From Betaproteobacteria bacterium (GTDB taxonomy: Bacteria; Pseudomonadota; Gammaproteobacteria; Burkholderiales; SG8-39), in assembly GCA_947467435.1 (NCBI GenBank), contig CANIIA010000002.1, positions 20,882 to 84,881 on the forward strand: DNA of 64,000 nt, given 5' to 3'. Shown here one piece after another: positions 15,540 to 40,514 of the stretch (position 1 is the stretch's first letter; each line of letters starts with the position of its first letter). Position numbers and translations under genes: made by a program. The notes below the pieces were generated by a model. The model was given only the letters and a program-made list of their open reading frames with translations. It had not been told where the DNA came from and ran no database searches.

Positions 15540-15600
15540 ATTGCGTCAGCAACAACAAAGCAACAACTCCATCTGACGAGTTCAATCACAACAGCCTCAT

Positions 15601-17124: not shown

Positions 17125-17163
17125 CGGTTATACCAAGACAGTCAGTGAATGAGTGGGAGTGTC

Positions 17164-19010: not shown

Positions 19011-19039
19011 TTGACGCATGCAAATCAGCCGCCTAGTCT
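19011..19039 (+). promoter_or_regulatory. Weak sigma70-like promoter candidate for the ligase/thioesterase/Mo-enzyme operon
   Basis: TTGACG (19011-19016), 17-nt spacer, TAGTCT (19034-19039). The -10 matches only 3/6. A TTGCGAAACGCAA palindrome lies just upstream at 18990-19002. Confidence 0.2.
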
Positions 19040-19072
19040 CGACTGCTATTGCTTGGCGTCTCCAAGGACTGC

Positions 19073-25691: not shown

Positions 25692-26696
25692 TTGCATCAC
25701 ACCCCTCGTCGTTACTACAAAAAGCTATCCCAAATTTTTGTATGGCTTGTATTGGGCGCCCAGTTACTCATGGCCCATGCTTTTGCACAATCGGAAAACT
25801 GGCCAACACGCCCACTCAAACTGATCGTGCCTTACGCAGCCGGCGGATCCACCGATATCGTGGGACGAACCTTTGCGCAAAAAATGACCGAAGCCACTGG
25901 ACACAGCATTGTGGTTGAAAATCGCGGGGGGGCTGCAGGCAGTGTGGCGACGGCGTTATACGCAAAATCAGCTATGGATGACCATACCTTTTTAATGGTC
26001 ACCGTCGGACAACTCTCGATCAACCAGTGGATTTATAAATCGCTCGGCTACGATCCAGAAGCCGACTTACAGCCTGTTGGCCTGGTTGGACAAGTAGCAA
26101 ACGTGATGGTGGTCAACCCCAGCGCCCCTTGGAAAACCGCGCGCGAGTTGTTTGATTATGGTCGTGCCAACCCAGAAAAACTCAATTTTGCGAGCGCCGG
26201 CATTGGCTCTACCGGACACTTACTCAACGAACTGATTGCCACGCGCTTAGGCATGAAGCTGGTGCACATTCCGTACAAAGGTAATGGCCCTGCCATGCAA
26301 GCGTTACTCGCCAATGAGGTGCAGTTCAACACCGAAAACATGCCGCAATTGTTACCGCAAATTCGTGCGGGCGCGTTGCGTCCGCTGGCAGTCTCCTCGG
26401 AGAAACGCTGGTTTCAGTTGCCCGATGTACCCACCTTTGCTGAATTGGGTTATCCAGAGATCACCACCATGGTGTGGTTTGGTGTGGTGGCGCATGCAAA
26501 AATGCCCAAGCCCATCATCAACAAATTAAATCGTGAGATGGTGCAAGTCATCAAACGACCCGATGTCACCGCGCGCTTTCGTGAGCTGAGTATGGAAAAC
26601 ATCACGAGCACTCCAGAAGAAATGCTGGCGCTAGCGCGACGTGAACGCACACGCTGGCAAAAAATCGCCATTGATTCGGGTGCGCGCGCAGATTAA
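25692..26696 (+). CDS. Bug/TctC-family periplasmic solute-binding protein (orphan; no tctA/tctB nearby)
   Basis: 334 aa. TTG start 6 nt after AAGGAG. Signal peptide IFVWLVLGAQLLMAHAFA. Motifs VPYAAGGSTDIVGR, NRGGAAG, ASAGIGSTGHL. Confidence 0.9.
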   Translation: MHHTPRRYYKKLSQIFVWLVLGAQLLMAHAFAQSENWPTRPLKLIVPYAAGGSTDIVGRTFAQKMTEATGHSIVVENRGGAAGSVATALYAKSAMDDHTFLMVTVGQLSINQWIYKSLGYDPEADLQPVGLVGQVANVMVVNPSAPWKTARELFDYGRANPEKLNFASAGIGSTGHLLNELIATRLGMKLVHIPYKGNGPAMQALLANEVQFNTENMPQLLPQIRAGALRPLAVSSEKRWFQLPDVPTFAELGYPEITTMVWFGVVAHAKMPKPIINKLNREMVQVIKRPDVTARFRELSMENITSTPEEMLALARRERTRWQKIAIDSGARAD

Positions 26697-26787
26697 ATCA
26701 ACGCGACAGAGGTGTGTATTCACCTGCGCGCTGAGGGAAACGTAAGCATAGCGTCACCGCCACAGGTTTTTGCTTGAGGTAATTACG

Positions 26788-27813
26788 TTACGTTTTTGCT
26801 TTACGTTGAAGTGTCGCGGCAGCGATGCGCGTGGATGGCGATTTGCGACCGTTGCGATCGTAAGCCCGCGCTTGCAAGGTCACAAACTGCGAAATCAGTA
26901 CATCGCGCAACCAGCGATTGCCTGGATCGTTATGCACACTACGATGCCAATGCATATTGACTTGAAACGTGGGCGGAACAAAGGGTAACGGCACCTGACA
27001 CAACCCACGCTGCGTGGTGATGAAATCTGCCAACGCTTGCGGCACGATCGCCACCACGTCGGTACTCGCCACAATGACTGGCACGCTCATAAAGTGCGGG
27101 GTATGTAACACCACACGCCGCTGGATGCGGTGGCTACGAAAAAATTTTTCGAGCACTTCTTGGCTACGGCCAGAGGCTTCAATGACCACATGACCCAGTC
27201 CAGCAAACTGCGCCAGACTCATCCGTTTGCCCGCGAGCGGATGGTCACTGCGCATGATGCAAGCAAATGAATGTAAACCCACCCGCCGGTGCAAATATTC
27301 CCCGGTACGAATATCCGGGAAATAACCTACCGCAAGATCCACTTCTCCTGCATCCATGGCTTGCGCCAATGCCTGCGGTGAAAGCGTCACCGATCGCACC
27401 CGTGCGCCTGGTGCCTCTTGCGCCACGCGTTGCAACACCAAGGGTAAATAAATCCCCTCGCCAATATCTGAAAGCGCTAAACGAAATTCACGCTGCGTAT
27501 TCGTCGGATTAAATTCGGGCGGGGTAAAAAGCTGCGCTTGCACTGTGTCTAAGATGGAGCGAATAGGTTCAATCAACGCGCGCGCACGCGTGGTGGGCTC
27601 CATGCCACGCGCAGTTTTGATAAACAGCGGATCATCCAATAGCGTCCGTAAGCGCGCCAACGCAGTACTTAGCCCAGGCTGACTCATTGCAAGTTGTTGT
27701 GCAGCGCGCACCACACCACGCGTTTCAAACACGGCAATAAATACGCGCAGCAACGCCAAATCCAGATGGCGCAAACGGGTGTCGCTGTGCGATACGACGG
27801 ATCGTCGCTTCAT
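26788..27813 (-). CDS. LysR-family transcriptional regulator
   Basis: 341 aa. N-terminal HTH LRVFIAVFETRGVVRAAQQLAMSQPGLSTALARLR. Divergent from the Rieske oxygenase genes. Confidence 0.92.
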   Translation of the reverse strand: MKRRSVVSHSDTRLRHLDLALLRVFIAVFETRGVVRAAQQLAMSQPGLSTALARLRTLLDDPLFIKTARGMEPTTRARALIEPIRSILDTVQAQLFTPPEFNPTNTQREFRLALSDIGEGIYLPLVLQRVAQEAPGARVRSVTLSPQALAQAMDAGEVDLAVGYFPDIRTGEYLHRRVGLHSFACIMRSDHPLAGKRMSLAQFAGLGHVVIEASGRSQEVLEKFFRSHRIQRRVVLHTPHFMSVPVIVASTDVVAIVPQALADFITTQRGLCQVPLPFVPPTFQVNMHWHRSVHNDPGNRWLRDVLISQFVTLQARAYDRNGRKSPSTRIAAATLQRKAKT

Positions 27814-27838
27814 GGTTATCTCAAATTAAGATACTGAA

Positions 27839-27853
27839 TATCTATTTTATTGC
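27839..27853. promoter_or_regulatory. Candidate LysR-type operator, AGATA-N5-TATCT
   Basis: Dyad with perfect 5-bp arms (a T-N11-A pattern sits inside it). It lies in the divergent LysR / Rieske-alpha intergenic region, about 70 nt upstream of the alpha ATG. Confidence 0.4.
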
Positions 27854-27922
27854 ATTGTCAGATATATGTTCGGGCCGTACGATACGGGCTACATCGTCTC
27901 ACCTACGTACGGAGTCACTCAG

Positions 27923-29212
27923 ATGTCTGCCACCCCTTCTGCGAGCACCGCGCACAGCACCGGTCCTGTTTCGGCCCCGTTATCGGCGCCCCTCGATTGG
28001 CCTGCCGAAGGCGTAGCGCGTGTGCCATTTCGGGTGTTCTCCGACCCAGAGATTTACGCCCAAGAACAAGAACGGATCTTCCGCGGGCCAATCTGGAATT
28101 TTGTGTGCATGGAAGCCGACGTCGCGCAACCCGGCGATATCCGCACGGCTTGGGTCGGTGAAACGCCCGTGGTGGTGACGCGTGATCATGATCAAAAGCT
28201 TCACGTCATGATCAATCGTTGCGCGCACAAAGGCGCGCTCGTGTGCTTAAAACAGCGCGACAAACAAGACTCCCTCACCTGCGTGTATCACGCGTGGAAC
28301 TATGGGCTAGATGGACAACTCAAAACCGTTGCTTTCCGACATGGCCTGAAGGGCAAAGGCGGCATGCCCGAGGATTTTGATTCGACCAAACACCGCTTGC
28401 AGCCGCTACGCGTAGCGACTTTTTGCGGCTTGGTGTTTGCAACGTTTTCTGATCAAACCGAACCCTTGGATCAATATTTGGGCGCACCGATGTCGAAGTT
28501 TCTGGAGCGTAATTTAGGCCGTCCGCTCAAGATCCTGGGTGTACACAGCCAGATGATTCACAACAATTGGAAGCTGTACGCCGAAAACGTGCGTGACTCC
28601 TATCACGCGACGCTGCTACACACCTTCTACACGACGTTTAAAGTCAATCGTCTCGATATGGATGGCGGCATTATTCTGTCGGACAAAAAATGGCATCACA
28701 TCAGTTATGCCAAACGCGCCACGCTGGACCAAGCGGGTGAATATAAAAATGCCAATGTGCACTCAGCCAAATTTGAATCGAATTTGGCGGGCCCCGAGTT
28801 GCTCAAAGCGTGGGACGAATTTGAAGACGGCATCACCCATAGCATTCAAACCGTGTTTCCCACCTTGGTGGTGCACTTCACGCTGAACTCTCTAGCGGTA
28901 CGCTATTTTGTGCCGCGTGGCGTTGATAAAACAGAATTGTTTTGGGTATTTCTGGGCTATGAACGTGACGATGCCGCACAAGAAAAAATGCGCGTGATGC
29001 AAGGCAACCTCACTGGTGCTGCCGGCCTTGTGTCCTTGGAAGATGGCTGTATCAACGAGTTCGTACAACGCGGCTCAACCACCAGCCCCGACAAACGGGC
29101 ATTTATTGAAATGGGTGGAAAAGTGGCCGAATCGAATGAATCTTCACGCGCCACCGAGGCCTCTGTTCGTGGCTTTTGGCACGGCTACCGCAACATTATG
29201 GGATTCAATTAA
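27923..29212 (+). CDS. Rieske non-heme iron aromatic ring-hydroxylating oxygenase, alpha subunit
   Basis: ORF from 27866. The ATG at 27923 is preceded by GGAG. Rieske motif CAHKGALVC...CVYHAWNY. Mononuclear iron motif NVRDSYHATLLH. Confidence 0.92.
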   Translation: MSATPSASTAHSTGPVSAPLSAPLDWPAEGVARVPFRVFSDPEIYAQEQERIFRGPIWNFVCMEADVAQPGDIRTAWVGETPVVVTRDHDQKLHVMINRCAHKGALVCLKQRDKQDSLTCVYHAWNYGLDGQLKTVAFRHGLKGKGGMPEDFDSTKHRLQPLRVATFCGLVFATFSDQTEPLDQYLGAPMSKFLERNLGRPLKILGVHSQMIHNNWKLYAENVRDSYHATLLHTFYTTFKVNRLDMDGGIILSDKKWHHISYAKRATLDQAGEYKNANVHSAKFESNLAGPELLKAWDEFEDGITHSIQTVFPTLVVHFTLNSLAVRYFVPRGVDKTELFWVFLGYERDDAAQEKMRVMQGNLTGAAGLVSLEDGCINEFVQRGSTTSPDKRAFIEMGGKVAESNESSRATEASVRGFWHGYRNIMGFN

Positions 29213-29219
29213 ACGCACC

Positions 29220-29729
29220 ATGTCTACACCGTCCGTCACTGCACACGCCACCCACGCGGTGGATGCAAACACACACCACCGCATCAGCACGTTGTTCACG
29301 CAGTATGCACACTGCCTCGATGATGATCGCACCGATGATTGGCCGGGGTTTTTTACCGCCGATGGGCTGTATCAAATCACGACGCGCGAAAACGAGGCCG
29401 CTGGCTACCCGATTGGGCTCATGCGATGTGAAGGTCGCGGCATGATGGAAGACCGAATGCTGGCACTCAAAATTGCCAACATCTACGAACCCCAACACGC
29501 TTGCCACTTGCTGGGGCCTGCAGAAATTCATCCACACACCGATGGTAGTTATCACGCACGCTCAAATTTCAGCGTGTTTCGTACCATGCAAAGCGGTGAT
29601 GCGAGCTTGTTTGCCACCGGCAAATATCTCGATCACGTGGTCAACGAAAACGGCCAGCTGCGCTTTCAATCACGCCGCGTGATTATCGACTCACGCTGCA
29701 TCGATGTGTTGTTGGTTTTGCCGCTTTAA
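29220..29729 (+). CDS. Ring-hydroxylating oxygenase beta subunit (SnoaL/NTF2-like)
   Basis: 169 aa from the ATG at 29220, 8 nt after the alpha stop. Pattern LFTQYAHCLDDDRTDDWPGFFTADGLYQI...RFQSRRVIIDS typical of small subunits. Confidence 0.85.
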   Translation: MSTPSVTAHATHAVDANTHHRISTLFTQYAHCLDDDRTDDWPGFFTADGLYQITTRENEAAGYPIGLMRCEGRGMMEDRMLALKIANIYEPQHACHLLGPAEIHPHTDGSYHARSNFSVFRTMQSGDASLFATGKYLDHVVNENGQLRFQSRRVIIDSRCIDVLLVLPL

Positions 29730-29760
29730 TTCTGTCGCTTTAATTCTGTTGCTTTATTTC
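29723..29760. repeat. 14-bp tandem repeat GCTTTAATTCTGT(C/T) x2 plus a partial copy
   Basis: Copies at 29723-29736 and 29737-29750, partial copy at 29751-29760. The first copy contains the beta-subunit TAA. The partial copy contains the stop of the convergent CoxG-like gene. Confidence 0.85.
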
Positions 29761-30224
29761 GGCGCTGGATGCGCTTGGGTCTCAGCAATGTGCTTTTCGA
29801 GCGCTTTAAAAAAACGACCGACTAAAAATTTAGCGACGCCAGAGAGCACACGTTGGCCCACACCAGCCACGACACCACCCACCTCACCACTGCCTGTGTA
29901 GAGTAAGCGGGTTTGAGCGTCACTCACCACCTCGAGATCGAACGCGGCGTGGCCTTTCATAAAACCAATCGAGCCCTGACCTTCGACACTTAAGATGTAA
30001 TGCGCGGGCTCACGTTTTTCTTCAATCGCGACCGTACCCACGTATTCACCTGAAACATTGGCCACTTGCAGCTTCAGGCCCATTTCATAGCGATCCGGGC
30101 CCACTTCACGCACCGTATTACATCCAGGAATTGTCTTCGCTAAAACAGCCGGATCGTTCAGCAGCGCCCATAACGTGGCTTGGCTCACGGGGAGGGTTTG
30201 TTCACCTTTGAGTTCGATGGCCAT
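29754..30224 (-). CDS. CoxG-family SRPBCC protein
   Basis: 156 aa. Starts MAIELKGEQTLPVSQATLWALLNDPAVLAKTIPGC. Last gene of the minus-strand catabolic operon. Confidence 0.8.
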   Translation of the reverse strand: MAIELKGEQTLPVSQATLWALLNDPAVLAKTIPGCNTVREVGPDRYEMGLKLQVANVSGEYVGTVAIEEKREPAHYILSVEGQGSIGFMKGHAAFDLEVVSDAQTRLLYTGSGEVGGVVAGVGQRVLSGVAKFLVGRFFKALEKHIAETQAHPAPK

Positions 30225-30227
30225 GGT

Positions 30228-31229
30228 CTAGCTCCGGCACCAGCAATCGGCGCGCACACGAAAAATGTGTTGTGCGGTTCCGCCGAGGATCGCGTCACGT
30301 TCTTTGGCATCCACATGCGCTGCATGAATTAATTTTTGCGGCTCTAAATCACCAATCGGGAATGGCATGTCTGAGCCGAGCATGATACGGCCTGGGCCTG
30401 ATTTTTTAGCTAAAAATTCAAACGCATCGACATCAAACACCACCGAATCAAAATACAAAGCCTCAAATCCAGCGCGCGGATCAGCGTATTTGCCTTGCGC
30501 AATGGTGAAGTTACGCGCCAACCGTCCGAGCACAAATGGTAGCGCTGCACCGCCATGCGAGAGCACTAATTTCACACCCGGAAATTTCAGTAGATGACCA
30601 GAAAATAATAGGCGCGCTACTGCAATCGAGGTATCAGCAACACGACCAATGGCATTGACTAAATCGTATTCTGCTAATCGTGGTTCGCCGCATAAAAACA
30701 TCGGATGCAACACCACCGCGGCTTTTAAATCCGAGGCGGCTTGCCAGAATGGATCGAGATTGGGGTCATCTAAATTTCCGCCTTGGCCCTTAGGCAAGGT
30801 CCCAATCATGATGCCGCCAAAACCATCGGCCATCACTTCGCGCAACACTTGCGCGGCCATTGCGCCATCTTGTAAGGGCACGGTAGCCAAGGGTGTAAAG
30901 CGCGTTTCATTGACCAGCGCGTCTTTCATGCACTGATTGATAAAACGACTCCAAGCCAAGCCCTCTGCAGGCGGTAATTCGTAACCAAAGCTATCGAGCC
31001 ATCCCCCCACGAGTTGATGATCGATGCCGTTTTTATCCATCCATGCACGACGATCATCCAGATCAGAAAGCTTCGGCATGATCGGACGCGTCATCTCTCC
31101 GCCCGGAAATTGCATGCGTCGACCTTTGTCGTCTTGCACCAACTTCACGCCAGGAAAACGCGCGTGTTCGGTAGCAAATCGATCAAAGACAAGCTTGGGA
31201 ATGTAATGGGCGTGAATATCGATAATCAT
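30228..31229 (-). CDS. Amidohydrolase-2 family protein (ACMSD/LigW-type non-oxidative decarboxylase fold)
   Basis: 333 aa. Starts MIIDIHAHYIP (HxH metal motif). Later VLHPMF, LSHGGAALP, LGSDMPFP. Confidence 0.85.
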   Translation of the reverse strand: MIIDIHAHYIPKLVFDRFATEHARFPGVKLVQDDKGRRMQFPGGEMTRPIMPKLSDLDDRRAWMDKNGIDHQLVGGWLDSFGYELPPAEGLAWSRFINQCMKDALVNETRFTPLATVPLQDGAMAAQVLREVMADGFGGIMIGTLPKGQGGNLDDPNLDPFWQAASDLKAAVVLHPMFLCGEPRLAEYDLVNAIGRVADTSIAVARLLFSGHLLKFPGVKLVLSHGGAALPFVLGRLARNFTIAQGKYADPRAGFEALYFDSVVFDVDAFEFLAKKSGPGRIMLGSDMPFPIGDLEPQKLIHAAHVDAKERDAILGGTAQHIFRVRADCWCRS

Positions 31230-32656
31230 GCGTGCAACCTTTCGTGAGAAACCGTTTGAATCATTGTCGACATCGCTGTACGGCCAGCAATACGACCAAA
31301 AACCAGCGCGCGTAATACCGCAACTGCGTTGGGTGCGCTATCGTAAAAATGTCCGGTGATTTCACCAGCGGCAAACAACCCCGCGATGGGTGTTGCATCC
31401 ATACCAGCGCGTAAGACGCGCGCTTGCGTATCGGTGGCTAAGCCACCAAAGGTGTAGGCAATCGCACCAACCAATGGATACGCAATGAATGGCGCGCGTT
31501 CGATCGGACACGCCCAATTCGATTTAGGCGGCTGTAATTGACTGGTACTGGCCAGGCCATCCACACGCGTCGCATCAAAGTGTTTGGTGTCGCCAAGACA
31601 CGCAGCGTTGTAAGCACGCACCGTTACCTGCAATCCCGCGCGATCAATACCGGTACGTTGTGCCAACGCATCAAGCGTCTCAGCTTGGATCGGGGCGACA
31701 TCAGAACGGACCGCACGAGCCAATCCCGGAATATCCAGCGCGCGTGCATCGAGGATTGCCCAGGCTTGGCGCGCTGCCGTCTTGAAATGAATATCGCGCG
31801 AAAAATATTCCCACGTTTCATGCACGAGACCAGCACCTTCATCAATAAATCGCTGGCCTGCTTGATCCACCACAATGCCATACGGATACACCAACACCAC
31901 AGGCGCTGAGGCGGTGCTACGTGCATCAACCGGTTCGCTATGCATGCCTGCCCAATTGCCCGACGTGCGTGCACCAATGGCTTGCGCCATGCGAATTCCG
32001 GCACCATCATTCATTGCAGAGCCTGGCGAAATCGGTCGCAGTGTTTCAGCACCTGCCCCGAGGTGTTCACGGAGCATGTGTGGATTCCCTTGAAATCCGC
32101 CACTGGCGAGCACGACACGTGGGGTATGTAAGCTTCGGCGCTTTGCGTGCTGCGTGATATCGATGCCAATGATCGCGCCGCTTGCATCGCAACGTAGTTG
32201 TTCTGCACGACAGTCATACCAAAACGTCACCCCTGCTGCATGGGCTGCTTGCATCAATCCAGACACGATACTGGCACCACCGCCCTGCGGTTGAATGCGG
32301 GGTGGACCCGCACTCATGTAATACCCCGGTGCATGGAACTGCACACCATGCGCTTCAACCCATTGCAGCGTCGCTGGCGCTTCTTTGGCCAGACATTCAA
32401 AGTAATCAGCATCGTGACGCGTACCGTTCGCCAAGTGCATATCGCGCAAAAAATCTGGCGCAAGCGCGTGTACCGATTGCATTCTTAAATTTGCAGGGCT
32501 CCAACGAGTACCACCACCACACTGCTCGGGGGAGGCTTGTTCTAGCACTACGATGCGTGCCTGCGTCGCGGCTTCTGCCGCAGCCAGTGCAGCGGCCAAA
32601 CCAGCAGCGCCGTGCCCGACAACGACCAGATCAAAGGTGTCTTGCAACGCGTTCAC
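31226..32656 (-). CDS. FAD-dependent oxidoreductase (fumarate reductase / TcuA / KstD-like flavoprotein)
   Basis: 476 aa. N-terminal FDLVVVGHGAAGLAAALAAAE and C-terminal GLFAAGEITGHFY. ATGA overlap with the amidohydrolase gene. Confidence 0.85.
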   Translation of the reverse strand: MNALQDTFDLVVVGHGAAGLAAALAAAEAATQARIVVLEQASPEQCGGGTRWSPANLRMQSVHALAPDFLRDMHLANGTRHDADYFECLAKEAPATLQWVEAHGVQFHAPGYYMSAGPPRIQPQGGGASIVSGLMQAAHAAGVTFWYDCRAEQLRCDASGAIIGIDITQHAKRRSLHTPRVVLASGGFQGNPHMLREHLGAGAETLRPISPGSAMNDGAGIRMAQAIGARTSGNWAGMHSEPVDARSTASAPVVLVYPYGIVVDQAGQRFIDEGAGLVHETWEYFSRDIHFKTAARQAWAILDARALDIPGLARAVRSDVAPIQAETLDALAQRTGIDRAGLQVTVRAYNAACLGDTKHFDATRVDGLASTSQLQPPKSNWACPIERAPFIAYPLVGAIAYTFGGLATDTQARVLRAGMDATPIAGLFAAGEITGHFYDSAPNAVAVLRALVFGRIAGRTAMSTMIQTVSHERLHA

Positions 32657-32707
32657 AAGAAAAACAAATCGAGCATGGATTGATGCGAATTAGATTCAGT
32701 CGGATGT

Positions 32708-33679
32708 TCAGTTCAGCTTGATATTCGCTGCTTTAACCAAGGCCGCATTGCGCGCCAAGTCATCGCGTAAATACGCATCAAATTGTTCTGGCGAAAACAC
32801 GCGCGAATCCTGACCCAAACTGGCCCAACGTGTACGAATCTCTGGCGAGTTCAGTGCTTTGAGTGTTTCTGCGTGCAACTTGTTGACGATGTCACGCGGC
32901 GTTTTTGCATGCACGCCCATACCCACCCAGAAGTTCTGCGCAGAATTTGGTACGCCAGCTTCCTCGGTGGTGGGCACATCCGGTAAACCCGATGAGCGAC
33001 GACTCGAGCCCACGGCCAGCGCCAGCAAACGACCGTCTTTCACCATCGGAATGACATTGGTGGCTGGGCAGAAACAAAAATCGACACGGCCACTGATCAC
33101 ATCGGTGAGTGCCTCGGGTGTACCTTTATAAGGCACCGAGGTCACATCAATGCCTGTGCCCAAACGAAAACGTTCGGTGGTGAGATGCGTGGCACTGCCA
33201 GTGCCAATAACGGCGGCGTTCATTTTTCCGGGATTGGCCTTTGCATACGCAACCAAATCTTTCACCGATTTAATGTTGCGATCAGTCTTCACGGCAAGTG
33301 CGTTGGCAATATCGGCAAGCATCGTGACACCGGCCAAATCTTTTAAGGTGTCGTAAGGCAAATTCGCGACAGTCACCGGCGTCACGGTCCACGAGGAGGA
33401 CATAATCAAAATCGTGTAGCCATCCGGATCAGCTTTAGCCACGGCATTCATTCCAATACTGCCGCTACCGCCCGGGCGATTTTCAACAACGAACGTCTGA
33501 CCAGTTTGCGCAGACAAACGCTCTGCAATCGCGCGGCCGGTGATATCAGTGCCACTACCGGGGGGCAAAGGCACGATGACCTTCACCGGTTTGGTAGGCC
33601 ACGACTGTGCGTTTACTAGGCAGGTAAATACCCCAAAGGAAAAGAACAGGATGCAGCGTAAGAAAACGCGTTGGTTCAT
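32708..33679 (-). CDS. Bug/TctC-family periplasmic solute-binding protein (second orphan copy)
   Basis: 323 aa. Signal peptide ILFFSFGVFTCLVNAQS. Motifs VPLPPGSGTDITGR, NRPGGSGSIG, GTGSATHL. Confidence 0.9.
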   Translation of the reverse strand: MNQRVFLRCILFFSFGVFTCLVNAQSWPTKPVKVIVPLPPGSGTDITGRAIAERLSAQTGQTFVVENRPGGSGSIGMNAVAKADPDGYTILIMSSSWTVTPVTVANLPYDTLKDLAGVTMLADIANALAVKTDRNIKSVKDLVAYAKANPGKMNAAVIGTGSATHLTTERFRLGTGIDVTSVPYKGTPEALTDVISGRVDFCFCPATNVIPMVKDGRLLALAVGSSRRSSGLPDVPTTEEAGVPNSAQNFWVGMGVHAKTPRDIVNKLHAETLKALNSPEIRTRWASLGQDSRVFSPEQFDAYLRDDLARNAALVKAANIKLN

Positions 33680-33743
33680 GACAACACCCCTTGTTTGTGC
33701 ATGTGACTAAATAAATGATTCATTGGTTTGATTCATCACGTAC

Positions 33744-33792
33744 AAAAAAACCTGACGCCCATACATTCAGTACGTATGGAAGAAGCTGCGTC
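33744..33792 (-). terminator. Candidate intrinsic terminator/attenuator after the Mo-hydroxylase large subunit
   Basis: Minus-strand RNA reads GACGC-agcttctt-CCATAC-guacugaau-GUAUGG-GCGUC-agg-U7. The stem is imperfect and interrupted. Confidence 0.4.
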
Positions 33793-33793
33793 G

Positions 33794-36187
33794 TTATTTC
33801 ATCGAACCCGCGCTCTGCAGCGTGCTCCATATGGCCATCGGTGTCATGGGTAATTCATCGAGCGCGTGGCCACTGGGGGCCAAGGCATCGTTGATTGCAC
33901 ATGCAATGGCTGCAGGCGCACCCAAATAGCCTGCCTCACCCGAGCCCTTTTGACCAAACACCGTCAGTGGCGACGGGGTGCAGTGATCGACAATATCGAC
34001 CGAAGGTACTTCCATTGCACTGGGCATCAAATAATCCATAAACGTTTGGCTCGCCAATTGCCCGTTTTCGCTGAAGGCAAATTTTTCATACAGCGCGGCA
34101 CCAATGCCATGTGCAATACCACCCCACGTCATGCCGTGGACAATTTGCGGGCTGATCATCGTGCCGCAATCGTGGCCAATAGCGTAGCGTGTGAGTGTTG
34201 GTTGACCAGTGGCTGGATCAATTTCAACCAATACGACGTGCGCTTCAAATGAATAACATGGATACATCTGCACACGACCATCGGCCGTTGGCAACCCGCC
34301 ACCCGTGGGCACTTCAAACACAAACTTTGCTTGCAAGCCTGGCTCGAGCCCCGGGGGCATTTGATGAATGCGCCGGTGCGCAATCTCAATCAACGCATCC
34401 CAATCCATGACGCGCGATGGTTCTGCTTTCACGGACACATGACCGTCGCGATACACCAAATCATCGAGCGGGCACTTCAGGTTGTGCGCCGCAATCGCCA
34501 TCAAATTGGCTTTGATTATTTTTGCAGCACCCGCTGCAGCACTGCCTAACATGATGGCCATGCGCGAACCCACCGGACTGTTGGAGGGCAAGGCGTTCAG
34601 CGAATCCGCATGCACCACACGAATGTCAGCAGGGTCACGTTCAAGAATTTCACCAACCACGGTGGACACTAAGGTTTCATGACCCTGCCCCGAAGTGGAG
34701 GTATTCATGACACCAGTAATGGCACCGGATAAATCGACACGCACTAAACACGAATCCATCCAGGTGGTGGTGAGATTTTTTGGATTAAACAAGGGCTCAA
34801 ACGACGAGTTACCGCCCGAAGGCTCCAGACACGTTGCAATGCCGATGCCCGCCAACTTCCCAGCTGCACGCGCCGCATCACGCGCTGCCACCAACGCGGG
34901 GTAATCAGCAGCAGCCATCGCTTTATCCAGCACCGTATGGTAATCCCCACTATCGTAGGTGGTGCCACTCGGAATCAAATACGGAAATTGGTCTTTGCGA
35001 ATCAGGTTGTGTCGACGTAGCGCCACGCGATCCATGTTGAGATGACGCGCAACACGATCAATGGCAGATTCAATGGCAAAGTTAGTGGGGGCTTGACCAA
35101 AGCCACGCACCGCTTCTTGCGCGGTTTTATTGGTCAACACCGAAATGGGTTCGTATTCGACGCTGTGAATTTGATATGGCCCGACAATCGCGCCCACCGG
35201 TTTACCCAACTGCAACGGCGAGCGACCCGCATAGGCACCCACATCATCCAGCGCGCGAATTTTTAGCGCACGAATGGTGCCGTCGTTTTCAAAGGCGACT
35301 TGCATATCGAAGATCCGATCGGGGCCATGCATATCGCCACCGCGCATGTTTTCGAGTCGGTCTTCAATAAAGCGAATGGGCATCCCCAATTTACGCGCGA
35401 GATAACCCACCAACACCGTGTGTTTAATGCCGCGTTTGACGCCGTAACTGCCGCCCACATCTACATCAAAATGCACGCGTACGGCATTGCCCGGCAAACG
35501 CAAGGTGCGTGCAATTTGGTCCGGATATTTCGGCATCTGAATCGAGGCCCAGACATCCAGCAGCTGCTGCGCCGGGTCCCAACGTGCAGTGACACCAAAG
35601 GTTTCGATGGGCACCGTGGCGCTACGCGCCCAACGACAACGAAAAGACAAGGTCTGCGCCGCTGCAGCGAAATCTTCTTCGACTGCGCCCCAAACAAATT
35701 TCCGCCGATACAACACATTGGATCCATGCGCGGGATGCACTAGATGCGCATCCGGGTTCAACGCCGCTTCGGGATCGAGCAAACAAGGCAGCGTTTCGTA
35801 TTCCACCTCAACGCGTTCGGCGGCGTCTTCTGCTAACGCACGCGTATCTGCAACCACCGCCGCAACCCACTCACCGGCATAGCGCACCACTTCATGCGCT
35901 AACGGATAGCGCTTCACCAAGGGCGTATCCACGCCAACCATTAACGCTTCCGTGGCGGCGACTAGCTCTGCCCCAGTGAGCACGTAATGCACACCATCCA
36001 TGGCCAGTGCACGATCGGCATGAATCGCTTTGATGCGTGCCGACGCATGTGGACTGGCCACCAACGCTACGTGCTTCATACCCGGCACCACAATGTCGGC
36101 CACGTAACGACCGCGACCCGTTACAAAACGCGGATCTTCTTTGGTGCGACGATGCTGACCGATATAACGAAATTTACTGTTACTCAT
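33794..36187 (-). CDS. Molybdopterin-binding large subunit of a xanthine-dehydrogenase-family hydroxylase (not CODH-type)
   Basis: ORF to 36268. Preferred ATG at 36187 (MSNSKFRYIGQHRRTKEDPRFVTGRGRYVAD) forms an ATGA overlap with the small-subunit stop. The loop equivalent to the CoxL signature reads EAVRGFGQAP. The GGGFG block reads VGGSYGVK. Confidence 0.88.
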   Translation of the reverse strand: MSNSKFRYIGQHRRTKEDPRFVTGRGRYVADIVVPGMKHVALVASPHASARIKAIHADRALAMDGVHYVLTGAELVAATEALMVGVDTPLVKRYPLAHEVVRYAGEWVAAVVADTRALAEDAAERVEVEYETLPCLLDPEAALNPDAHLVHPAHGSNVLYRRKFVWGAVEEDFAAAAQTLSFRCRWARSATVPIETFGVTARWDPAQQLLDVWASIQMPKYPDQIARTLRLPGNAVRVHFDVDVGGSYGVKRGIKHTVLVGYLARKLGMPIRFIEDRLENMRGGDMHGPDRIFDMQVAFENDGTIRALKIRALDDVGAYAGRSPLQLGKPVGAIVGPYQIHSVEYEPISVLTNKTAQEAVRGFGQAPTNFAIESAIDRVARHLNMDRVALRRHNLIRKDQFPYLIPSGTTYDSGDYHTVLDKAMAAADYPALVAARDAARAAGKLAGIGIATCLEPSGGNSSFEPLFNPKNLTTTWMDSCLVRVDLSGAITGVMNTSTSGQGHETLVSTVVGEILERDPADIRVVHADSLNALPSNSPVGSRMAIMLGSAAAGAAKIIKANLMAIAAHNLKCPLDDLVYRDGHVSVKAEPSRVMDWDALIEIAHRRIHQMPPGLEPGLQAKFVFEVPTGGGLPTADGRVQMYPCYSFEAHVVLVEIDPATGQPTLTRYAIGHDCGTMISPQIVHGMTWGGIAHGIGAALYEKFAFSENGQLASQTFMDYLMPSAMEVPSVDIVDHCTPSPLTVFGQKGSGEAGYLGAPAAIACAINDALAPSGHALDELPMTPMAIWSTLQSAGSMK

Positions 36188-36684
36188 TTCGCACCGCCAG
36201 TTGCGCGTAATTTTTCTGCCGCCAGTTTCACAGCAGCAACAATCTGTACGTAACCCGTGCAACGACATAAGTTGCCGCCGATGGCGTCACGAATATCCGC
36301 TTCAGTTGGATTGAGATTGGTTTGTAACAAGGCATGCGCAGAAATCAACATACCGGGTGTGCAATATCCGCATTGCATGCCGTGGGTTTCACAAAACGCG
36401 TCTTGTAAAACACCTGGCGTGCCATCGGGCTGACTCAGGCCTTCCACCGTTGTGATGGCACAGGCATCGGCTTGCACGGCGTACATCAAACACGAACGCA
36501 CGGGTTCACCATCAAGCATCACCGAGCAGGCGCCACAAATACCGTGTTCGCAACCGACGTGCGTGCCGGTTAAACCGAGTGTGTCGCGTAAAAAATCAAC
36601 CAATGACGTGCGCGCAGGCACCGCAGCGCTACGCGGCTGACCATTCACCATCAAAGTGACGACATGTAATTTTTCAGCACTCAT
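36184..36684 (-). CDS. [2Fe-2S] small subunit of the second Mo hydroxylase
   Basis: 166 aa. Motifs [30 protein letters not shown]. Confidence 0.92.
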   Translation of the reverse strand: MSAEKLHVVTLMVNGQPRSAAVPARTSLVDFLRDTLGLTGTHVGCEHGICGACSVMLDGEPVRSCLMYAVQADACAITTVEGLSQPDGTPGVLQDAFCETHGMQCGYCTPGMLISAHALLQTNLNPTEADIRDAIGGNLCRCTGYVQIVAAVKLAAEKLRATGGAK

Positions 36685-37562
36685 GCCTTGGCCTTTTCAC
36701 AAGCGGCACGCAACACGCGGCCAAGTAACACCTGCGCGAGGTGTCGACGATATTCTGCGCTGGCGTGTAAGTCGCCTTCCGGATCAAGTGCCGCTGCCGC
36801 AGCTGCGGCCAATGCATCTAAATTTGTTGCGTTCGCAGATTGGCCGACCAATTGCGCAGCAACTTCAGGCAGGGCCTGCGGGATCGGCGCTGCACCCCCT
36901 ACACCAACGACACAGCGCGTCACCACACCCGCTGCATCGAGGGCCACTTGCGCGCAGGCCGAGGCCAAAGCGAAATCACCGTGTCGGATACTGATTTCAT
37001 CAAACGCACTACCAACATGCGCGTCACGCCACACTGGAAAACGCACAGCAACCAAACATTGGTCTGGCGCAATCGCCGTCACCATGGGGGCATAAAAAAA
37101 TTCGGCAGCACTGAGTTCGCTGCTGCCGTTGGCATCTTGCAACTCCAACGTGGCTTCCAGTACTGCAGCCACCAGCGGAATTTCTGCCGACGGATCGGCG
37201 TGCACAATCGATCCACCCAAGGTGCCACGATTGCGCGTTTGCACGTGCCCCACCCAACGCATCGCTTGAATCAACAAAGGTAACTCGCGCTGCACCAAGG
37301 CATCGGCCTGGACATGGGCTTGACGCGTGGTCGCGCCAATACGCACGCCTTCATCACAAACTGTAATGCCTTGCAGATCGGCGATGCGACCAATGTCGAT
37401 GAGTACCGCAGGGCGAGCTAAACGCATGGCCATCATCGGCACTAAGCTCTGACCACCAGCGATGAGTTTGGCATCTGCGCCATGCTCAGCGAGCAACGCA
37501 CAGGCTTGCGCAACCGAGGTCACGCGTTGATATTCAAAAGCGGCTGATTTCATAGACGACAT
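36681..37562 (-). CDS. FAD-binding medium subunit of the second Mo hydroxylase
   Basis: ORF to 37676. Probable start at 37562 or 37553 (MSSMKSAAFEYQRV). Motif LIAGGQSLVPMMAMR. ATGA overlap with the small subunit. Confidence 0.85.
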   Translation of the reverse strand: MSSMKSAAFEYQRVTSVAQACALLAEHGADAKLIAGGQSLVPMMAMRLARPAVLIDIGRIADLQGITVCDEGVRIGATTRQAHVQADALVQRELPLLIQAMRWVGHVQTRNRGTLGGSIVHADPSAEIPLVAAVLEATLELQDANGSSELSAAEFFYAPMVTAIAPDQCLVAVRFPVWRDAHVGSAFDEISIRHGDFALASACAQVALDAAGVVTRCVVGVGGAAPIPQALPEVAAQLVGQSANATNLDALAAAAAAALDPEGDLHASAEYRRHLAQVLLGRVLRAACEKAKA

Positions 37563-37657: not shown

Positions 37658-37747
37658 AAACACCCCGCATTTGCAAGACGCAACTAGCGTCCCCCCCGTA
37701 AATGACTGAAAATGGCGGTCCTTTTTTTGTCGCCGACCCCCGCCACT

Positions 37748-38668
37748 ATGTCTGCCGCCTCCGTTGCCCTGCCCACCACGATCGATGCCACCTTAAAACT
37801 GCTGACCTCGGCCGATTATGTGGCGGATCGCAGCCTGGCCACGTCTGTTTTCCTCGCGCTCAGCATGCATCGCCCGCTGTTTTTGGAGGGCGAAGCCGGC
37901 GTGGGTAAAACCGAAATCGCTAAAGTGCTCGCTAGCGCGCTAGGCCGAGATTTGATTCGCTTGCAATGCTATGAAGGCCTCGACATCGCGCAGGCTGCCT
38001 ACGAATGGAATTACTCGCGCCAGATGATTGAAATTCGTTTGGCTGAAGCCGCGGGCAATCAATCGCGCGAGCAACTGTCTTCCGATATTTATTCGGAGCG
38101 TTTTTTGATTAAGCGCGCGTTACTCAAAGCACTCGAAGGCAAACCGGGTCAAGCGCCGGTACTGCTAATTGATGAGCTCGATCGCACTGACGAGCCGTTT
38201 GAAGCCTATTTACTCGAAGTGTTGTCCGACTTTCAAATTACCATTCCGGAAACAGGCACCTTCAAAGCGGTCGATACCCCGATCGTCATCATCACCTCGA
38301 ATCGTACCCGCGAAATTCACGACGCGGTCAAACGCCGTTGTCTGTATCACTGGGTCGATTACCCAGACGCACAACGCGAACTCGACATCTTGCGTCGTAA
38401 AGCGCCCCAAGCAGCCGAGGCGTTAACACGAGAAATTGTGCGCTTTGTGCAAGCCTTACGCGGGATCGATTTATTTAAACTTCCAGGCGTGGCCGAAACC
38501 ATCGACTGGGCCAATGCGATGGTGGCACTCGATCAACTCGCGCTCGACCCACAAACCGTCAACGACACGCTGGGCGTGTTACTCAAATATCAAGACGACA
38601 TAGAGCGCGTACGTGGCGATGAAGCCGCGCGGCTCACCGCGTTGGCTAAAGCGACGCCCGCCAGCTGA
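37748..38668 (+). CDS. coxD: MoxR-type AAA+ ATPase (CoxD-like)
   Basis: ORF from 37712; ATG at 37748 preferred. Walker A GEAGVGKT, Walker B VLLIDELDR. Followed by a VWA-domain gene. Confidence 0.88.
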   Translation: MSAASVALPTTIDATLKLLTSADYVADRSLATSVFLALSMHRPLFLEGEAGVGKTEIAKVLASALGRDLIRLQCYEGLDIAQAAYEWNYSRQMIEIRLAEAAGNQSREQLSSDIYSERFLIKRALLKALEGKPGQAPVLLIDELDRTDEPFEAYLLEVLSDFQITIPETGTFKAVDTPIVIITSNRTREIHDAVKRRCLYHWVDYPDAQRELDILRRKAPQAAEALTREIVRFVQALRGIDLFKLPGVAETIDWANAMVALDQLALDPQTVNDTLGVLLKYQDDIERVRGDEAARLTALAKATPAS

Positions 38669-38676: not shown

Positions 38677-39894
38677 ATGTTGGCCCTTCCGCAAGCGCAT
38701 CACGGTCGCGGCAAATTCGCCGAGAACGTCATGCACTTTGCGCGCTTGTTGCGCGGCGCAGGTTTGCGTGTCGGACCTGATCGTGTGATTGATTGCACCC
38801 GAGCCATTGAACTCGCGGGGACTGCGCGGCGCGACGATTTTTACTGGACGCTTTCTGCGGTCTTGTTATCACGCGAAGAACAACGCCCCATTTTTGATCA
38901 AGCGTTTGAATTATTTTGGCGGGACCCCAAGCTCATCGAAAAAATGATGCAAGCGCTGTTGCCTGCTGCGCACGGCAAAACGCAACGCGAAGAACAAGAG
39001 CAAAGCCAACGACTCACGGATGCATTATTCAATCAGCCCAAGCGTGACGTACCACAAGAAGAAGAACAAAAAATTGAGCTCGATGCCAAGCTCACTTTTT
39101 CTTCACGTGAAGTGTTGCAGCGCATGGACTTTGACACCATGTCAGCCGCCGAATTAGCGGAAGCAAAAAAAATGCTGTTGCAGCTTCGGTTACCCTTACC
39201 CGAAATTACCACGCGTCGCTTTCGGGTCGATCCGCGTGGACAGCGTGTCGATCTTCGCGCATCGCTACGCACCAGTTTGCGTAAAGGTGGCGATCTGATT
39301 CCATTAATACGTACCGCGCCCAAACAATTACATCCACCCTTGGTGGTGTTATGCGATATCTCCGGTTCGATGAATCCGTATGCGCGCATGTTTCTGCATT
39401 TCTTACATGCGATCACCAACGACCGCGATCGTGTGACGGTCTTTGTGTTTGGCACGCGCCTCACTAACGTCACGCGGCAATTACGTCATCGCGATGTTGA
39501 TGTCGCCATGCAACGCGTGGCAGAAGCCATCAAAGACTGGTCAGGCGGTACGCGCATTGGTCGCTGTCTACACGAATTTAATTATCGCTGGGCGCGCCGC
39601 GTATTCGGGCAAAATGCTTGCTTACTATTAGTCACGGACGGGCTAGACCGCGAAGCAGGTGAAGGTCTCGCTGAAGAAATGCAACGTATCGCGCTGTCGT
39701 GTCGTCATGTGATCTGGCTCAATCCATTACTGCGTTACGATCAATTTGAAGCCAAACCTGCCGGTGTGCGCGCAATGTTGCCCTACGTTGATCGCTTCCT
39801 TCCGGTTCATAATCTTAAAAGTCTGATTGACCTTTCGCATGCCATGCAACAACCGGTCATGCGTTCACACCCTGGAGAAAAACGATGGAAATGA
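38677..39894 (+). CDS. coxE: VWA-domain protein (CoxE-like)
   Basis: 405 aa. MIDAS-type DISGSM in VVLCDISGSMNPY. C-terminal IWLNPLL motif typical of CoxE-type proteins. Confidence 0.85.
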   Translation: MLALPQAHHGRGKFAENVMHFARLLRGAGLRVGPDRVIDCTRAIELAGTARRDDFYWTLSAVLLSREEQRPIFDQAFELFWRDPKLIEKMMQALLPAAHGKTQREEQEQSQRLTDALFNQPKRDVPQEEEQKIELDAKLTFSSREVLQRMDFDTMSAAELAEAKKMLLQLRLPLPEITTRRFRVDPRGQRVDLRASLRTSLRKGGDLIPLIRTAPKQLHPPLVVLCDISGSMNPYARMFLHFLHAITNDRDRVTVFVFGTRLTNVTRQLRHRDVDVAMQRVAEAIKDWSGGTRIGRCLHEFNYRWARRVFGQNACLLLVTDGLDREAGEGLAEEMQRIALSCRHVIWLNPLLRYDQFEAKPAGVRAMLPYVDRFLPVHNLKSLIDLSHAMQQPVMRSHPGEKRWK

Positions 39895-40514
39895 CGGGCG
39901 AGCAACTGATTCACGCCTCGCAAGCGGACACCTGGACAGCGCTGAATGATCCAGAGATTCTCAAAGCCTGTGTGCCTGGCTGTGAGTCGATTGAACGCAT
40001 CGGAGACAACGCGTATCAAGTGCTGATGACCGCGCGGATTGGTCCTGTAGCGGCAAAATTTAAAGGCAAATTAGCGCTCTCAGATATTCAAGCGCCCAAT
40101 TCATACGCCATTGCATTTGAAGGCCAAGGTGGCGTGGCCGGTTTTGGTAAAGGCGGCGCACAGGTGCAATTGGCCACAGAAGGCCAGCACACGCGACTGT
40201 CGTATCAAGTCAAAGCCAGCGTGGGTGGCAAGCTTGCGCAAATTGGTTCGCGATTGGTGGATGCTGCTGCTAAAAAAATCTCTGAAGATTTTTTTAAAGC
40301 CTTCAATGAAAAAGTGGCAAGCCTACATCCAGCTGCACAGAGTTCAAACGAAGCCACCGGCGCGCATGCACCGACACATGCTGATCACGACGATCACCAC
40401 CCCGAACCTGTCGCTGATGATCCAGACAAACCGCAAGTCAGCACCGCAACATTGCGTTGGCTCGCTGCCGGTGCATTGGTGGTGCTCATTGCCATTCTCG
40501 CCACCAGCTTCTAG
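39885..40514 (+). CDS. coxG: CoxG-family SRPBCC protein with His/Asp-rich linker and C-terminal transmembrane tail
   Basis: 209 aa. SRPBCC core QLIHASQADTWTALNDPEILKACVPGC. Then HAPTHADHDDHHPEPVADDPDKP, then LRWLAAGALVVLIAILATSF. Overlaps the coxE stop. Confidence 0.8.
   Translation: MEMTGEQLIHASQADTWTALNDPEILKACVPGCESIERIGDNAYQVLMTARIGPVAAKFKGKLALSDIQAPNSYAIAFEGQGGVAGFGKGGAQVQLATEGQHTRLSYQVKASVGGKLAQIGSRLVDAAAKKISEDFFKAFNEKVASLHPAAQSSNEATGAHAPTHADHDDHHPEPVADDPDKPQVSTATLRWLAAGALVVLIAILATSF

Follow-up and report, generated by a model that had tools for sequence, protein, structure and literature searches.

Which substrate is served by the molybdenum (Mo) hydroxylase operon found in the DNA of an uncultured Burkholderiales bacterium, and what do the genes behind it contribute? 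The window, meaning the whole stretch of 64,000 nucleotides that was analysed (Betaproteobacteria bacterium, assembly GCA_947467435.1, contig CANIIA010000002.1, positions 20,882 to 84,881), carries on its minus strand the three subunit genes of this enzyme in the order M-S-L, followed by genes for a periplasmic solute receptor, a flavoprotein, an Amidohydro_2 protein and a CoxG-like protein. We read the operon as serving the breakdown of a carboxylic acid taken up by the cell, with a planar (hetero)aromatic di-acid as the most probable kind, and give this tentative reading a probability of about 0.45. Because the surrounding genes are housekeeping genes (pmbA, darP, thyA, metG and dnaE), the locus was placed in the core chromosome; the nearest genome is a 98%-identical metagenome-assembled genome (MAG; locus L012). 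The operon consists of the following genes.

36681..37553, minus strand: M, the FAD subunit, 290 aa (PF00941 FAD_binding_5, 2.5e-46; PF03450 CO_deh_flav_C, 4.8e-21)
36184..36684, minus strand: S, the subunit with two [2Fe-2S] clusters, 166 aa (PF01799 Fer2_2, 1.5e-30; PF00111 Fer2, 3.5e-09)
33794..36187, minus strand: L, the molybdopterin-binding catalytic subunit, 797 aa (PF01315 Ald_Xan_dh_C, PF02738 MoCoBD_1, PF20256 MoCoBD_2)
32708..33679, minus strand: Bug/TctC periplasmic solute receptor of the tripartite tricarboxylate transporter (TTT) type, 323 aa with a signal peptide (PF03401, 6.7e-66)
31226..32656, minus strand: TcuA-like FAD flavoprotein, 476 aa, GTG start (PF00890 FAD_binding_2, 1.2e-38)
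30228..31229, minus strand: ACMSD-like Amidohydro_2 protein, 333 aa, N-terminus MIIDIHAHYIP (PF04909, 1.4e-25)
29754..30224, minus strand: CoxG-like SRPBCC protein (coxG1), 156 aa (PF06240, 2.3e-23)

The positions and Pfam domains bear out the seven genes in the order that the first-pass annotation of this DNA had given, and of the several ATGA junctions claimed there three were found, at M/S, S/L and flavoprotein/Amidohydro_2. The remaining intergenic gaps measure 114 nt (L-Bug), 51 nt (Bug-flavoprotein) and 3 nt (Amidohydro_2-CoxG), and the same gene calls were obtained on six metagenome contigs with an identical Amidohydro_2 protein. Given the agreeing gene calls, the overlaps and the short gaps, the operon reading is sound, and the seven genes look co-transcribed. 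An alternative ATG of M at 37562 gives a protein of 293 aa, but M is called at 290 aa on metagenome contigs; its translation contains the AGGQS motif.

All three subunits gave the Pfam domains expected of a Mo hydroxylase, with E values from 1e-9 to 3e-64 (1e-27 to 3e-64 for the three domains of L). As had been noted from the letters alone, the translation of L contains an EAVRGFGQAP loop and a GGSYGVK motif and neither signature of carbon monoxide dehydrogenase (CODH), and the loop alignment agrees. In the HMMER alignment, EAVRGFGQ stood opposite AYRCSFR of CoxL and CutL, AYRGVGFT of Qor and AYRAPGRY of Kdh. L has a loop two residues shorter than that of CODH (VAYRCSFR) and lacks the Cys that binds Cu there; form I CODH was ruled out on these two counts. 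The form II CoxL-like type was ruled out as well, since the loop reads EAVRGFGQ in all 120 closest database homologues, and not AYRGAGR. The catalytic Glu is kept, with GSGE751AG aligning with Glu743 of Qor and the Glu of CODH, and so is the Gln next to Mo, SIQ217MPKY aligning with the Gln of Qor and CODH. Judged by its sequence, M-S-L is therefore a Mo hydroxylase of the CoxL/Qor branch and not a CO dehydrogenase.

Known relatives do not name the substrate of this enzyme, in line with the earlier judgement. L reached no NCBIfam equivalog, every score being about half its cut-off (top model CODH grp5, 477 bits versus 950; TIGR02416 for form I CODH, 447 versus 991). The best PDB match was QorL (1t3q_B) at 415 bits, barely above the next two, both CODHs, at 388 and 379 bits. 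QorMSL of Pseudomonas putida 86 shares with the operon the M-S-L order, a short loop without Cys, and the catalytic Glu and Gln. However, the loops differ (AYRGVGFT versus EAVRGFGQ), Qor has Ala and Val where L has Arg252 and Phe363, the oxoO/oxoR partners are absent here, and quinoline, the substrate of Qor, is not a carboxylate, whereas the operon holds a carboxylate receptor and a putative di-acid decarboxylase. Orthology with QorL was rejected for the closeness of its score to those of the CODHs and for the differing loop and residue after GGxxGxK. The M-S-L order, taken in the first-pass annotation as a pointer to quinoline 2-oxidoreductase and nicotine dehydrogenase, is not diagnostic because coxMSL has the same order. 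Among plasmids of cultured bacteria, L found one match of 72% identity (Burkholderia sp. PAMC 26561), all others being at most 40.5% identical, including nicotine dehydrogenase at 33.6% and the HmfA-type subunit of Dinoroseobacter at 35.6%.

A second Mo hydroxylase lies in the window on the plus strand at 12256-15489. Its L (788 aa, 12256-14622) has an AYRGAGR loop and a GGGFGSK motif and is only 32% identical to the operon L; its FAD subunit (266 aa) gave no CO_deh_flav_C match. Two AMP-binding CoA ligases and a thiolase-like gene adjoin it (15601-20644).

What the active site of the operon L might accept was considered from its invariant residues. No variation in the QEAVRGFGQ[A/S]P loop was seen among the 120 closest database homologues or the L orthologues of 80 genome loci, and in the same two sets an Arg (Arg252) invariably follows straight after the GGS[Y/F]G[V/L]K motif. 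In L, 35 residues separate Gln217 from Arg252 and 111 separate Arg252 from Phe363. These spacings resemble what we take to be the bovine xanthine dehydrogenase (XDH) values, 35 for Gln767-Glu802 and 112 for Glu802-Phe914, within the GGGFGGKE and FRGFGG motifs. From this numbering and the matching spacing we infer that Arg252 and Phe363 occupy the positions of XDH Glu802 and Phe914. The residue at the Arg252 position is Ala in Qor, Gly in Kdh and Val in the CODHs, and that at the Phe363 position is Val, Pro and Ser, respectively. A stacking Phe together with a cationic residue replacing the substrate-binding Glu of XDH would fit a planar, anionic substrate.

The Amidohydro_2 protein points in the same chemical direction. 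Its best PDB match was human ACMSD (2.4e-38, full length), with isoorotate decarboxylase and LigW far behind and gamma-resorcylate decarboxylase (gamma-RSD) at 1.3e-11. H6, H8, H175, H225, D287, R48 and R236 align with H6, H8, H174, H224, D291, R47 and R235 of ACMSD, of which the HxH pair, His174 and Asp291 serve as metal or second-shell residues, His224 as the catalytic residue, and Arg47 and Arg235 as carboxylate holders. All seven residues are invariant in 167 family members. The likeness to ACMSD (2wm1, 2hbv) thus extends over the full length and takes in the Zn ligands, the catalytic His and both substrate Arg, although the relationship is distant and the Trp of the ACMSD KYWLPW segment is not kept. 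Most plausibly the protein is a putative non-oxidative decarboxylase of a di-acid, and the earlier assignment as a non-oxidative decarboxylase is the one that the ACMSD likeness and the invariant metal and Arg residues favour. The kynurenine/nitrobenzoate setting of true ACMSD is lacking, no 3-hydroxyanthranilate dioxygenase or aminomuconate genes having been found nearby; the family is tied to the Mo hydroxylase instead. On plasmids, the protein found ACMSD-like homologues at 28-32% identity only. JGI names the Amidohydro_2 partners "aminocarboxymuconate-semialdehyde decarboxylase."

To what extent these genes travel together was examined in 80 genome loci with an L 69-98% identical to that of the operon, which were fetched and searched by tblastn with the window proteins. 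Partner counts cover the 61 loci with at least 4 kb downstream of L, requiring the Amidohydro_2 gene within 9 kb, at least 50% identity for a Bug orthologue and at least 40% for a coxG2-like gene. They were taken from tblastn because a census by clustering of open reading frames (ORFs) suffered in part from false ORFs on the opposite strand of high-GC loci.

Amidohydro_2 orthologue near L: 42 of 61 loci, in 27 of them directly after L on the same strand
Bug orthologue near L: 30 of 61
coxG2-like gene near L: 17 of 61
coxG1 near L: 13 of 61
coxD near L: 8 of 61
TcuA-like flavoprotein near L: 7 of 61
Rieske alpha subunit near L: 5 of 61

The pairing of M-S-L with the Amidohydro_2 gene is seen in Beta- as well as Alphaproteobacteria, and in most of these loci the identity of either protein is about 70-83%. 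The Amidohydro_2 protein is conserved like L, with 72-84% identity to its closest non-identical homologues; the top 120 homologues match L at 75-98% identity, almost all of them in MAGs of Burkholderiales or Betaproteobacteria. This pattern indicates that selection keeps M-S-L and the Amidohydro_2 gene together, usually alongside a TTT receptor. All seven genes listed at first pass are real; the flavoprotein, however, is not part of the conserved core, and among the accessory genes a wider distribution is seen for the coxG2-like gene alone. Nearly all occurrences of the flavoprotein and coxD/E fall in the lineage with an L at least 78% identical. A different MAG (L007) carries the identical seven-gene operon and the divergent coxDEG genes beside pmbA, with differing flanks and no Rieske genes.

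Recurrent partners in the related loci give a hint of the substrate class. UbiD decarboxylases occur in 17 of them, with UbiX recurring alongside. The best PDB match of the recurrent UbiD was the furandicarboxylate decarboxylase HmfF (144 bits), and it is only 28% identical to the HmfF-type protein of D. shibae. A PcaD-type enol-lactonase occurs in 12 related loci, the copy in L051 scoring above the TIGR02427 cut-off (261.8 versus 255.85). HmfF-like UbiD, UbiX and PcaD-type enol-lactonase act on (hetero)aromatic acids and point to a substrate of this kind. ABC or TTT binding proteins are frequent near L in the relatives, and single loci have an enoyl-CoA hydratase, a CoA ligase, a second TcuA-like gene or a 563-aa FAD_binding_2 protein.

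Two loci deserve separate mention. In Betaproteobacteria bacterium RIFCSPLOWO2_02_FULL_63_19 (L009/L027, 3188-15526), three UbiD-family genes surround M-S-L and the Amidohydro_2 gene, and the 563-aa FAD_binding_2 protein is found there without the Bug/TcuA-like pair; a different flavoprotein subfamily is recruited to the M-S-L and Amidohydro_2 module in this case. Plasmid NZ_CP014310.1 of Burkholderia sp. PAMC 26561 (L092, locus 5030-17835) is the sole cultured-strain plasmid with a clade member (L 72%). Behind its M-S-L lie genes for a PcaD-like hydrolase, an enoyl-CoA hydratase, CoxG and XdhC, with a TcuA-like gene and a succinate-semialdehyde dehydrogenase gene upstream.

Taken as a route for a (hetero)aromatic di-acid, the operon would work as follows. 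The Bug receptor would hand the imported acid to a tripartite tricarboxylate transporter. M-S-L would then add a water-derived hydroxyl to an sp2 C-H, Phe363 stacking on the ring and Arg252 holding a carboxylate, and the electrons would pass over the two [2Fe-2S] clusters and FAD to a membrane acceptor, for which, from what is known of the family, the CoxG proteins are possible anchors. The new hydroxy or oxo group would lie next to, or vinylogous to, the carboxyl-bearing carbon, so that the ACMSD-type Zn enzyme could strip the carboxyl as CO2, with the conserved Arg48 and Arg236 gripping the di-acid. The TcuA-like flavoprotein would probably desaturate a reduced form of the substrate or a related acid, CoxD and CoxE would help the Mo centre to mature, and the product would be passed to pathways encoded elsewhere. 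By chemical reasoning, which is not evidence, pyridine dicarboxylates such as 2,5- or 2,3-pyridinedicarboxylate are the best-fitting candidates: the carbon beside the ring N is free in them, one carboxyl would stand ortho or vinylogous to the hydroxyl introduced there, and each of the two Arg would have a carboxylate to hold. In formal terms, oxidation of the ACMSD substrate and closure to the cyclic lactam give 6-hydroxyquinolinate. Dipicolinate was rejected as a substrate: both of its carbons beside the ring N bear carboxyls, and the recorded dipicolinate route is of another type, independent of the molybdenum cofactor and initiated by an oxygenase.

The proteins around this two-enzyme core were then considered. 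The Bug receptor matched BugE (199 bits), Bug27 (199 bits) and a terephthalate-binding protein (178 bits) in the PDB. The flavoprotein matched the NCBIfam TcuA model PRK08274 over its full length (312.6 bits, E 4.6e-93), but below the cut-off of 369; it lies inside a Mo-hydroxylase operon, tcuB and tcuC are absent here, and no TcuB-like gene was found among the annotated neighbours, so TcuA membership was not assigned. Weaker NCBIfam matches were to ketosteroid dehydrogenases and 4-oxocyclohexanecarboxylate desaturases. FAD_binding_2 relatives desaturate or reduce C-C bonds beside carboxylates or ketones. Of the fumarate-reductase residues, HHTMGG is replaced by AYTFGG, the C-terminal Arg of NRLGGN is missing, and the alignment of the proton-donor Arg is ambiguous. 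The TcuA-like gene near the L orthologue on the Burkholderia plasmid is a second, independent case. We read the protein as a putative feeder C-C desaturase that appears to have been added mainly in the closest relatives.

The first-pass annotation had not described the cox-type genes that diverge from the operon, nor the Rieske module that converges on it. The former are:

37712..38668, plus strand: coxD-like AAA+ (MoxR-type) ATPase, divergent from the operon, a putative maturation factor (PF07728, PF00004)
38677..39894, plus strand: coxE-like VWA protein (PF05762, 1.7e-67)
39885..40514, plus strand: second CoxG-like protein (coxG2), 209 aa (PF06240, 3.1e-34)

The divergent arrangement of coxD is also seen in L007 and L011. 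The best NCBIfam match of the coxD-like protein was "MadB family AAA-type ATPase" (273 bits versus a cut-off of 475), and that of the coxE-like protein was "MadC family VWA," likewise below cut-off.

The Rieske module forms a block at 25692-29729 that converges on coxG, with the following genes assigned by Pfam.

25692-26696, plus strand: Bug receptor
26788-27813, minus strand: LysR
27923-29212, plus strand (longest ORF from 27866): Rieske oxygenase alpha subunit
about 29169-29729, plus strand: Rieske oxygenase beta subunit

The alpha subunit is 45.9% identical to TphA2 (7vju, 428 bits) and 36.6% identical to salicylate 5-hydroxylase. It keeps the iron ligands (H210, H215 and D356), the carboxylate-binding R309, and I290. 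It also keeps N224, S243 and R390, where NagG has Trp, Met and Met; these three residues occur only in terephthalate dioxygenases (TPADO), where they hold the second carboxylate (Kincannon et al.). The TPADO residues are kept too in the co-located Rieske orthologues and in L083, a Paucimonas MAG. The module adjoins M-S-L in close relatives and, independently, in L083, where the arrangement differs, the Bug-LysR-alpha-beta block lying downstream of M-S-L, the Amidohydro_2 gene and an alpha/beta hydrolase gene. A canonical terephthalate pathway was nevertheless rejected, as neither tphB nor a reductase gene (tphA1) was found near the module in the window or in the stand-alone copies examined. 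The module predicts an aromatic para-dicarboxylate substrate in this neighbourhood, and the LysR-alpha-beta-Bug block may represent an undescribed family of aryl-dicarboxylate hydroxylases. The presence of a Rieske oxygenase with dicarboxylate residues beside the module in two divergent lineages is suggestive of a di-acid route.

Several points weigh against the di-acid reading. Decarboxylation is not proven, because Amidohydro_2 enzymes are also hydratases, C-C hydrolases, lactonases and, in the lumazine route, ring isomerases, and neither the L clade nor the Amidohydro_2 clade has a characterised member. The roles proposed for Arg252 and Phe363 rest on motif equivalence, not on structure. 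The flavoprotein and coxD/E occur mainly in the closest relatives, and the LysR-alpha-beta-Bug block can be found by itself in Hydrogenophaga, Paralcaligenes and Lacisediminimonas (L095-L098), so that its tie to the Mo operon is only suggestive. Many loci keep only Bug, M-S-L and the Amidohydro_2 gene, with no ring-cleavage genes; pathways for N-heteroaromatics seldom look like this, and a product already belonging to central metabolism would account for it better. Finally, nothing in the analysis singles out a substrate, and the pyridine dicarboxylates stay candidates.

By analogy, two published clusters offer precedents for pairing a Mo hydroxylase with an Amidohydro_2 enzyme. In the pic cluster of Alcaligenes faecalis JQ135, to which the first-pass annotation had likened the operon, a Mo hydroxylase (PicA) and a Rieske hydroxylase of the TphA2/NagG subfamily (PicB) act before an Amidohydro_2 enzyme (PicC), which decarboxylates a hydroxylated pyridine carboxylate, 3,6-dihydroxypicolinate (10.1101/530550). 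For PicC, however, its authors give 45% identity to gamma-resorcylate decarboxylase and an EEH motif (10.1101/457895). Since PicC is thus of the gamma-RSD branch and the protein here, with its HAH (HxH) motif, is of the ACMSD branch (1.3e-11 versus 2.4e-38), orthology with PicC was rejected; the pyridine-carboxylate analogy holds for the pairing of enzyme classes but not for the Amidohydro_2 protein. In lumazine cluster I of Cupriavidus sp. LA-1, an Amidohydro_2 enzyme processes a lactam made by a Mo hydroxylase, and UbiD (XCDC) and UbiX are present, UbiD/UbiX also occurring in many relatives of the operon. That enzyme, DHLI, is a heterotetramer of two paralogous ~27 kDa subunits (108 kDa) that needs a GTPase and isomerises its substrate, and the Mo hydroxylase LuDH, which works with NAD+ and has its subunits in the order L-S-M, is not a member of the COX group (PMC12391406). 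The operon has a single 333-aa Amidohydro_2 protein, and no GTPase, UbiD, UbiX or deaminase gene was found in the window; membership in lumazine cluster I was rejected. A literature search on the combination of M-S-L with ACMSD-like and TcuA-like genes, on quinolinate dehydrogenase genes, on pyridine-dicarboxylate catabolism and on a Mo enzyme acting on pyrrole-2-carboxylate gave nothing relevant beyond the pic, dip and lumazine papers.

A more far-reaching but doubtful reading is that Bug, M-S-L and the ACMSD-like enzyme form a self-contained two-step module, abundant in uncultured Burkholderiales and in some Alphaproteobacteria, that turns a common environmental di- or tricarboxylate directly into a central metabolite. 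Under one form of it, the Mo hydroxylase may act on a non-heteroaromatic, aconitate-type enoate in a CoA-free pathway of desaturation, hydroxylation and decarboxylation. Under the other, the module may salvage pyridine dicarboxylates formed abiotically from aromatic meta-cleavage products and ammonia. Either, if true, would mean a new substrate class or ecological role for CoxL-branch enzymes.

An unlikely alternative is the CoA-free ring opening of 2-furoate or pyrrole-2-carboxylate, in which M-S-L would hydroxylate C5 and the enol-lactone or lactam arising by tautomerisation would be hydrolysed by the Amidohydro_2 or PcaD-like enzyme on the way to 2-oxoglutarate. The PcaD-type enol-lactonase, which in several loci without an Amidohydro_2 gene stands after L, and the recurrent UbiX and HmfF-closest UbiD are both consistent with it, as is the enoyl-CoA hydratase of L083 and L092 and the CoA ligase of L083, genes also found in hmf clusters. 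If the module consists of two enzymes and leads to a central metabolite, the lack of further conserved pathway genes would be accounted for, and DHLI of the lumazine route shows an Amidohydro_2 enzyme attacking a lactam made by a Mo hydroxylase. Nevertheless, the window holds no UbiD, UbiX or lactonase gene, Amidohydro_2 and lactonase genes occur together in several loci, and every decarboxylase residue of ACMSD is kept, including two carboxylate-binding Arg, whereas furoate has one carboxylate. We know of no report of a Mo enzyme that hydroxylates free furoate. The hmf cluster of D. shibae (pDSHI01) belongs to the same superfamily and handles a heteroaromatic acid, and some loci related to ours have UbiD/UbiX, a hydratase or Bug receptors; yet this hmfABCDE-type cluster has an L of 983 aa, the order L-M-S, a CoA ligase and a hydratase, and the operon has neither ligase nor hydratase. 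As a genuine hmf-type cluster differs in identity, gene order and partners, the JGI label "2-furoyl-CoA dehydrogenase large subunit," which most clade members bear (one is labelled "3-oxo-Delta1-steroid hydratase/dehydrogenase large subunit"), is not supported.

We regard as quite unlikely a CoA-independent route for an aliphatic tri- or dicarboxylate, in which the TcuA-like enzyme would desaturate a tricarballylate-like acid to an aconitate-like enoate, M-S-L would hydroxylate the vinyl C-H of this to give an oxalosuccinate-like enol, and the ACMSD-like enzyme would decarboxylate it to a 2-oxo acid, for example, 2-oxoglutarate. The full-length, near-TcuA score of the flavoprotein, the independent TcuA-like gene on the Burkholderia plasmid and a receptor of the tricarboxylate transporter family all speak for it. 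The enol HO-C(COO-)=C(COO-)-R would mimic the ACMSD substrate H2N-C(COO-)=C(COO-)-R, for which both Arg are kept, and the fact that nothing else is conserved would suit a minimal module whose product is a central metabolite. Hydroxylation by a Mo enzyme at the beta-carbon of an enone has a precedent in the steroid enzyme AtcABC. We know of no CoxL-branch enzyme that acts on a simple enoate. Against this route, the flavoprotein is missing from 54 of the 61 loci, a TcuB partner is lacking, UbiD/UbiX, enol-lactonase and Rieske partners point to aromatic substrates, and cis-aconitate already has a housekeeping route.

That the genes are mere neighbours, an unrelated Mo enzyme beside transport and decarboxylase genes, appears improbable. 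It would agree with the variation of the flavoprotein, coxD/E and Rieske genes by lineage and with the 114-nt spacer after L, in which a weak hairpin followed by T7 is found:

33744..33792, minus strand: weak hairpin with T7, within the 114-nt L-Bug spacer

This hairpin, proposed at first pass as a possible attenuator, was not significant. Its energy of -14.8 kcal/mol does not stand out from chance (z = -1.17), with 26 of 200 shuffles reaching a fold as good, and the terminator scan, which itself gave no more sites than shuffles, missed it. Apart from the window, L012 (98% identical) is the one locus with the hairpin spacer; other relatives have a short ribosome-binding spacer or overlapping genes. 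An attenuator or terminator was rejected, the fold being neither beyond shuffles nor conserved; at most it is a weak, lineage-specific partial terminator. A chance grouping is further opposed by the Amidohydro_2 gene standing straight after L in 27 loci of different classes with both proteins similarly conserved, by the overlapping start and stop codons, and by the same seven-gene order between other flanks in L007.

The true pic pathway, with M-S-L as PicA, the Rieske oxygenase as PicB and the Amidohydro_2 protein as PicC, is highly improbable. Three enzyme classes are shared with the pic cluster, and the Rieske alpha subunit falls into the TphA2 sequence cluster, which includes hydroxypicolinate 3-monooxygenase. 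In addition to the EEH versus HxH difference, however, PicA has the order L-M-S, PicB has four components where only alpha and beta are found here, and picD, picE, picF, picG, the ferredoxin and reductase genes and the 2,5-dihydroxypyridine genes are absent. The Rieske protein keeps residues for a second carboxylate, and 6-hydroxypicolinate has only one. The true pic pathway is largely refuted.

Least credible is an aerobic CODH of form I or II, or the 2-furoyl-CoA dehydrogenase of the JGI label, for although the top NCBIfam models are CODH large subunits and coxD, coxE and coxG are present, each score amounts to about half its curated cut-off, no Cu-binding Cys is present in the loop, which falls two residues short of AYRCSFR and is not AYRGAGR, the operon has no CoA ligase, and the D. 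shibae L is only 35.6% identical and sits in a cluster of different size, order and partners.

With the defining features of the pic and lumazine systems lacking, the locus belongs to an orphan, abundant clade of CoxL-branch hydroxylases with a fixed ACMSD-type partner. CoxL-like Mo enzymes without a CODH signature are very common and are often mis-annotated as CO, xanthine or furoyl-CoA dehydrogenase; as orphan Mo hydroxylases are so common, the locus itself will be no surprise to specialists. It does define a clade by the invariant QEAVRGFGQ loop, the Arg at the position corresponding to XDH Glu802, the ACMSD-type partner and the TTT receptor. This clade was found in many sequence clusters from soil, groundwater and activated-sludge metagenomes, and naming its substrate would fix the annotation across many MAGs and add a route of carbon and nitrogen turnover to community models.

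Two further gene groups were seen in the window. At 54301-59083, among housekeeping genes, CoA-ligase (FdrA/AllF-like), AllG and AllH domains occur with an amino-acid (carbamate) kinase, the signature of the oxamate carbamoyltransferase branch of allantoin/oxalurate catabolism. At 21206-25554 on the plus strand, a DMSO-reductase-family molybdopterin oxidoreductase of 917 aa is followed by a 532-aa protein with several 4Fe-4S domains and a weak NrfD-like membrane part, and this pair is conserved beside the locus in all six metagenome contigs.

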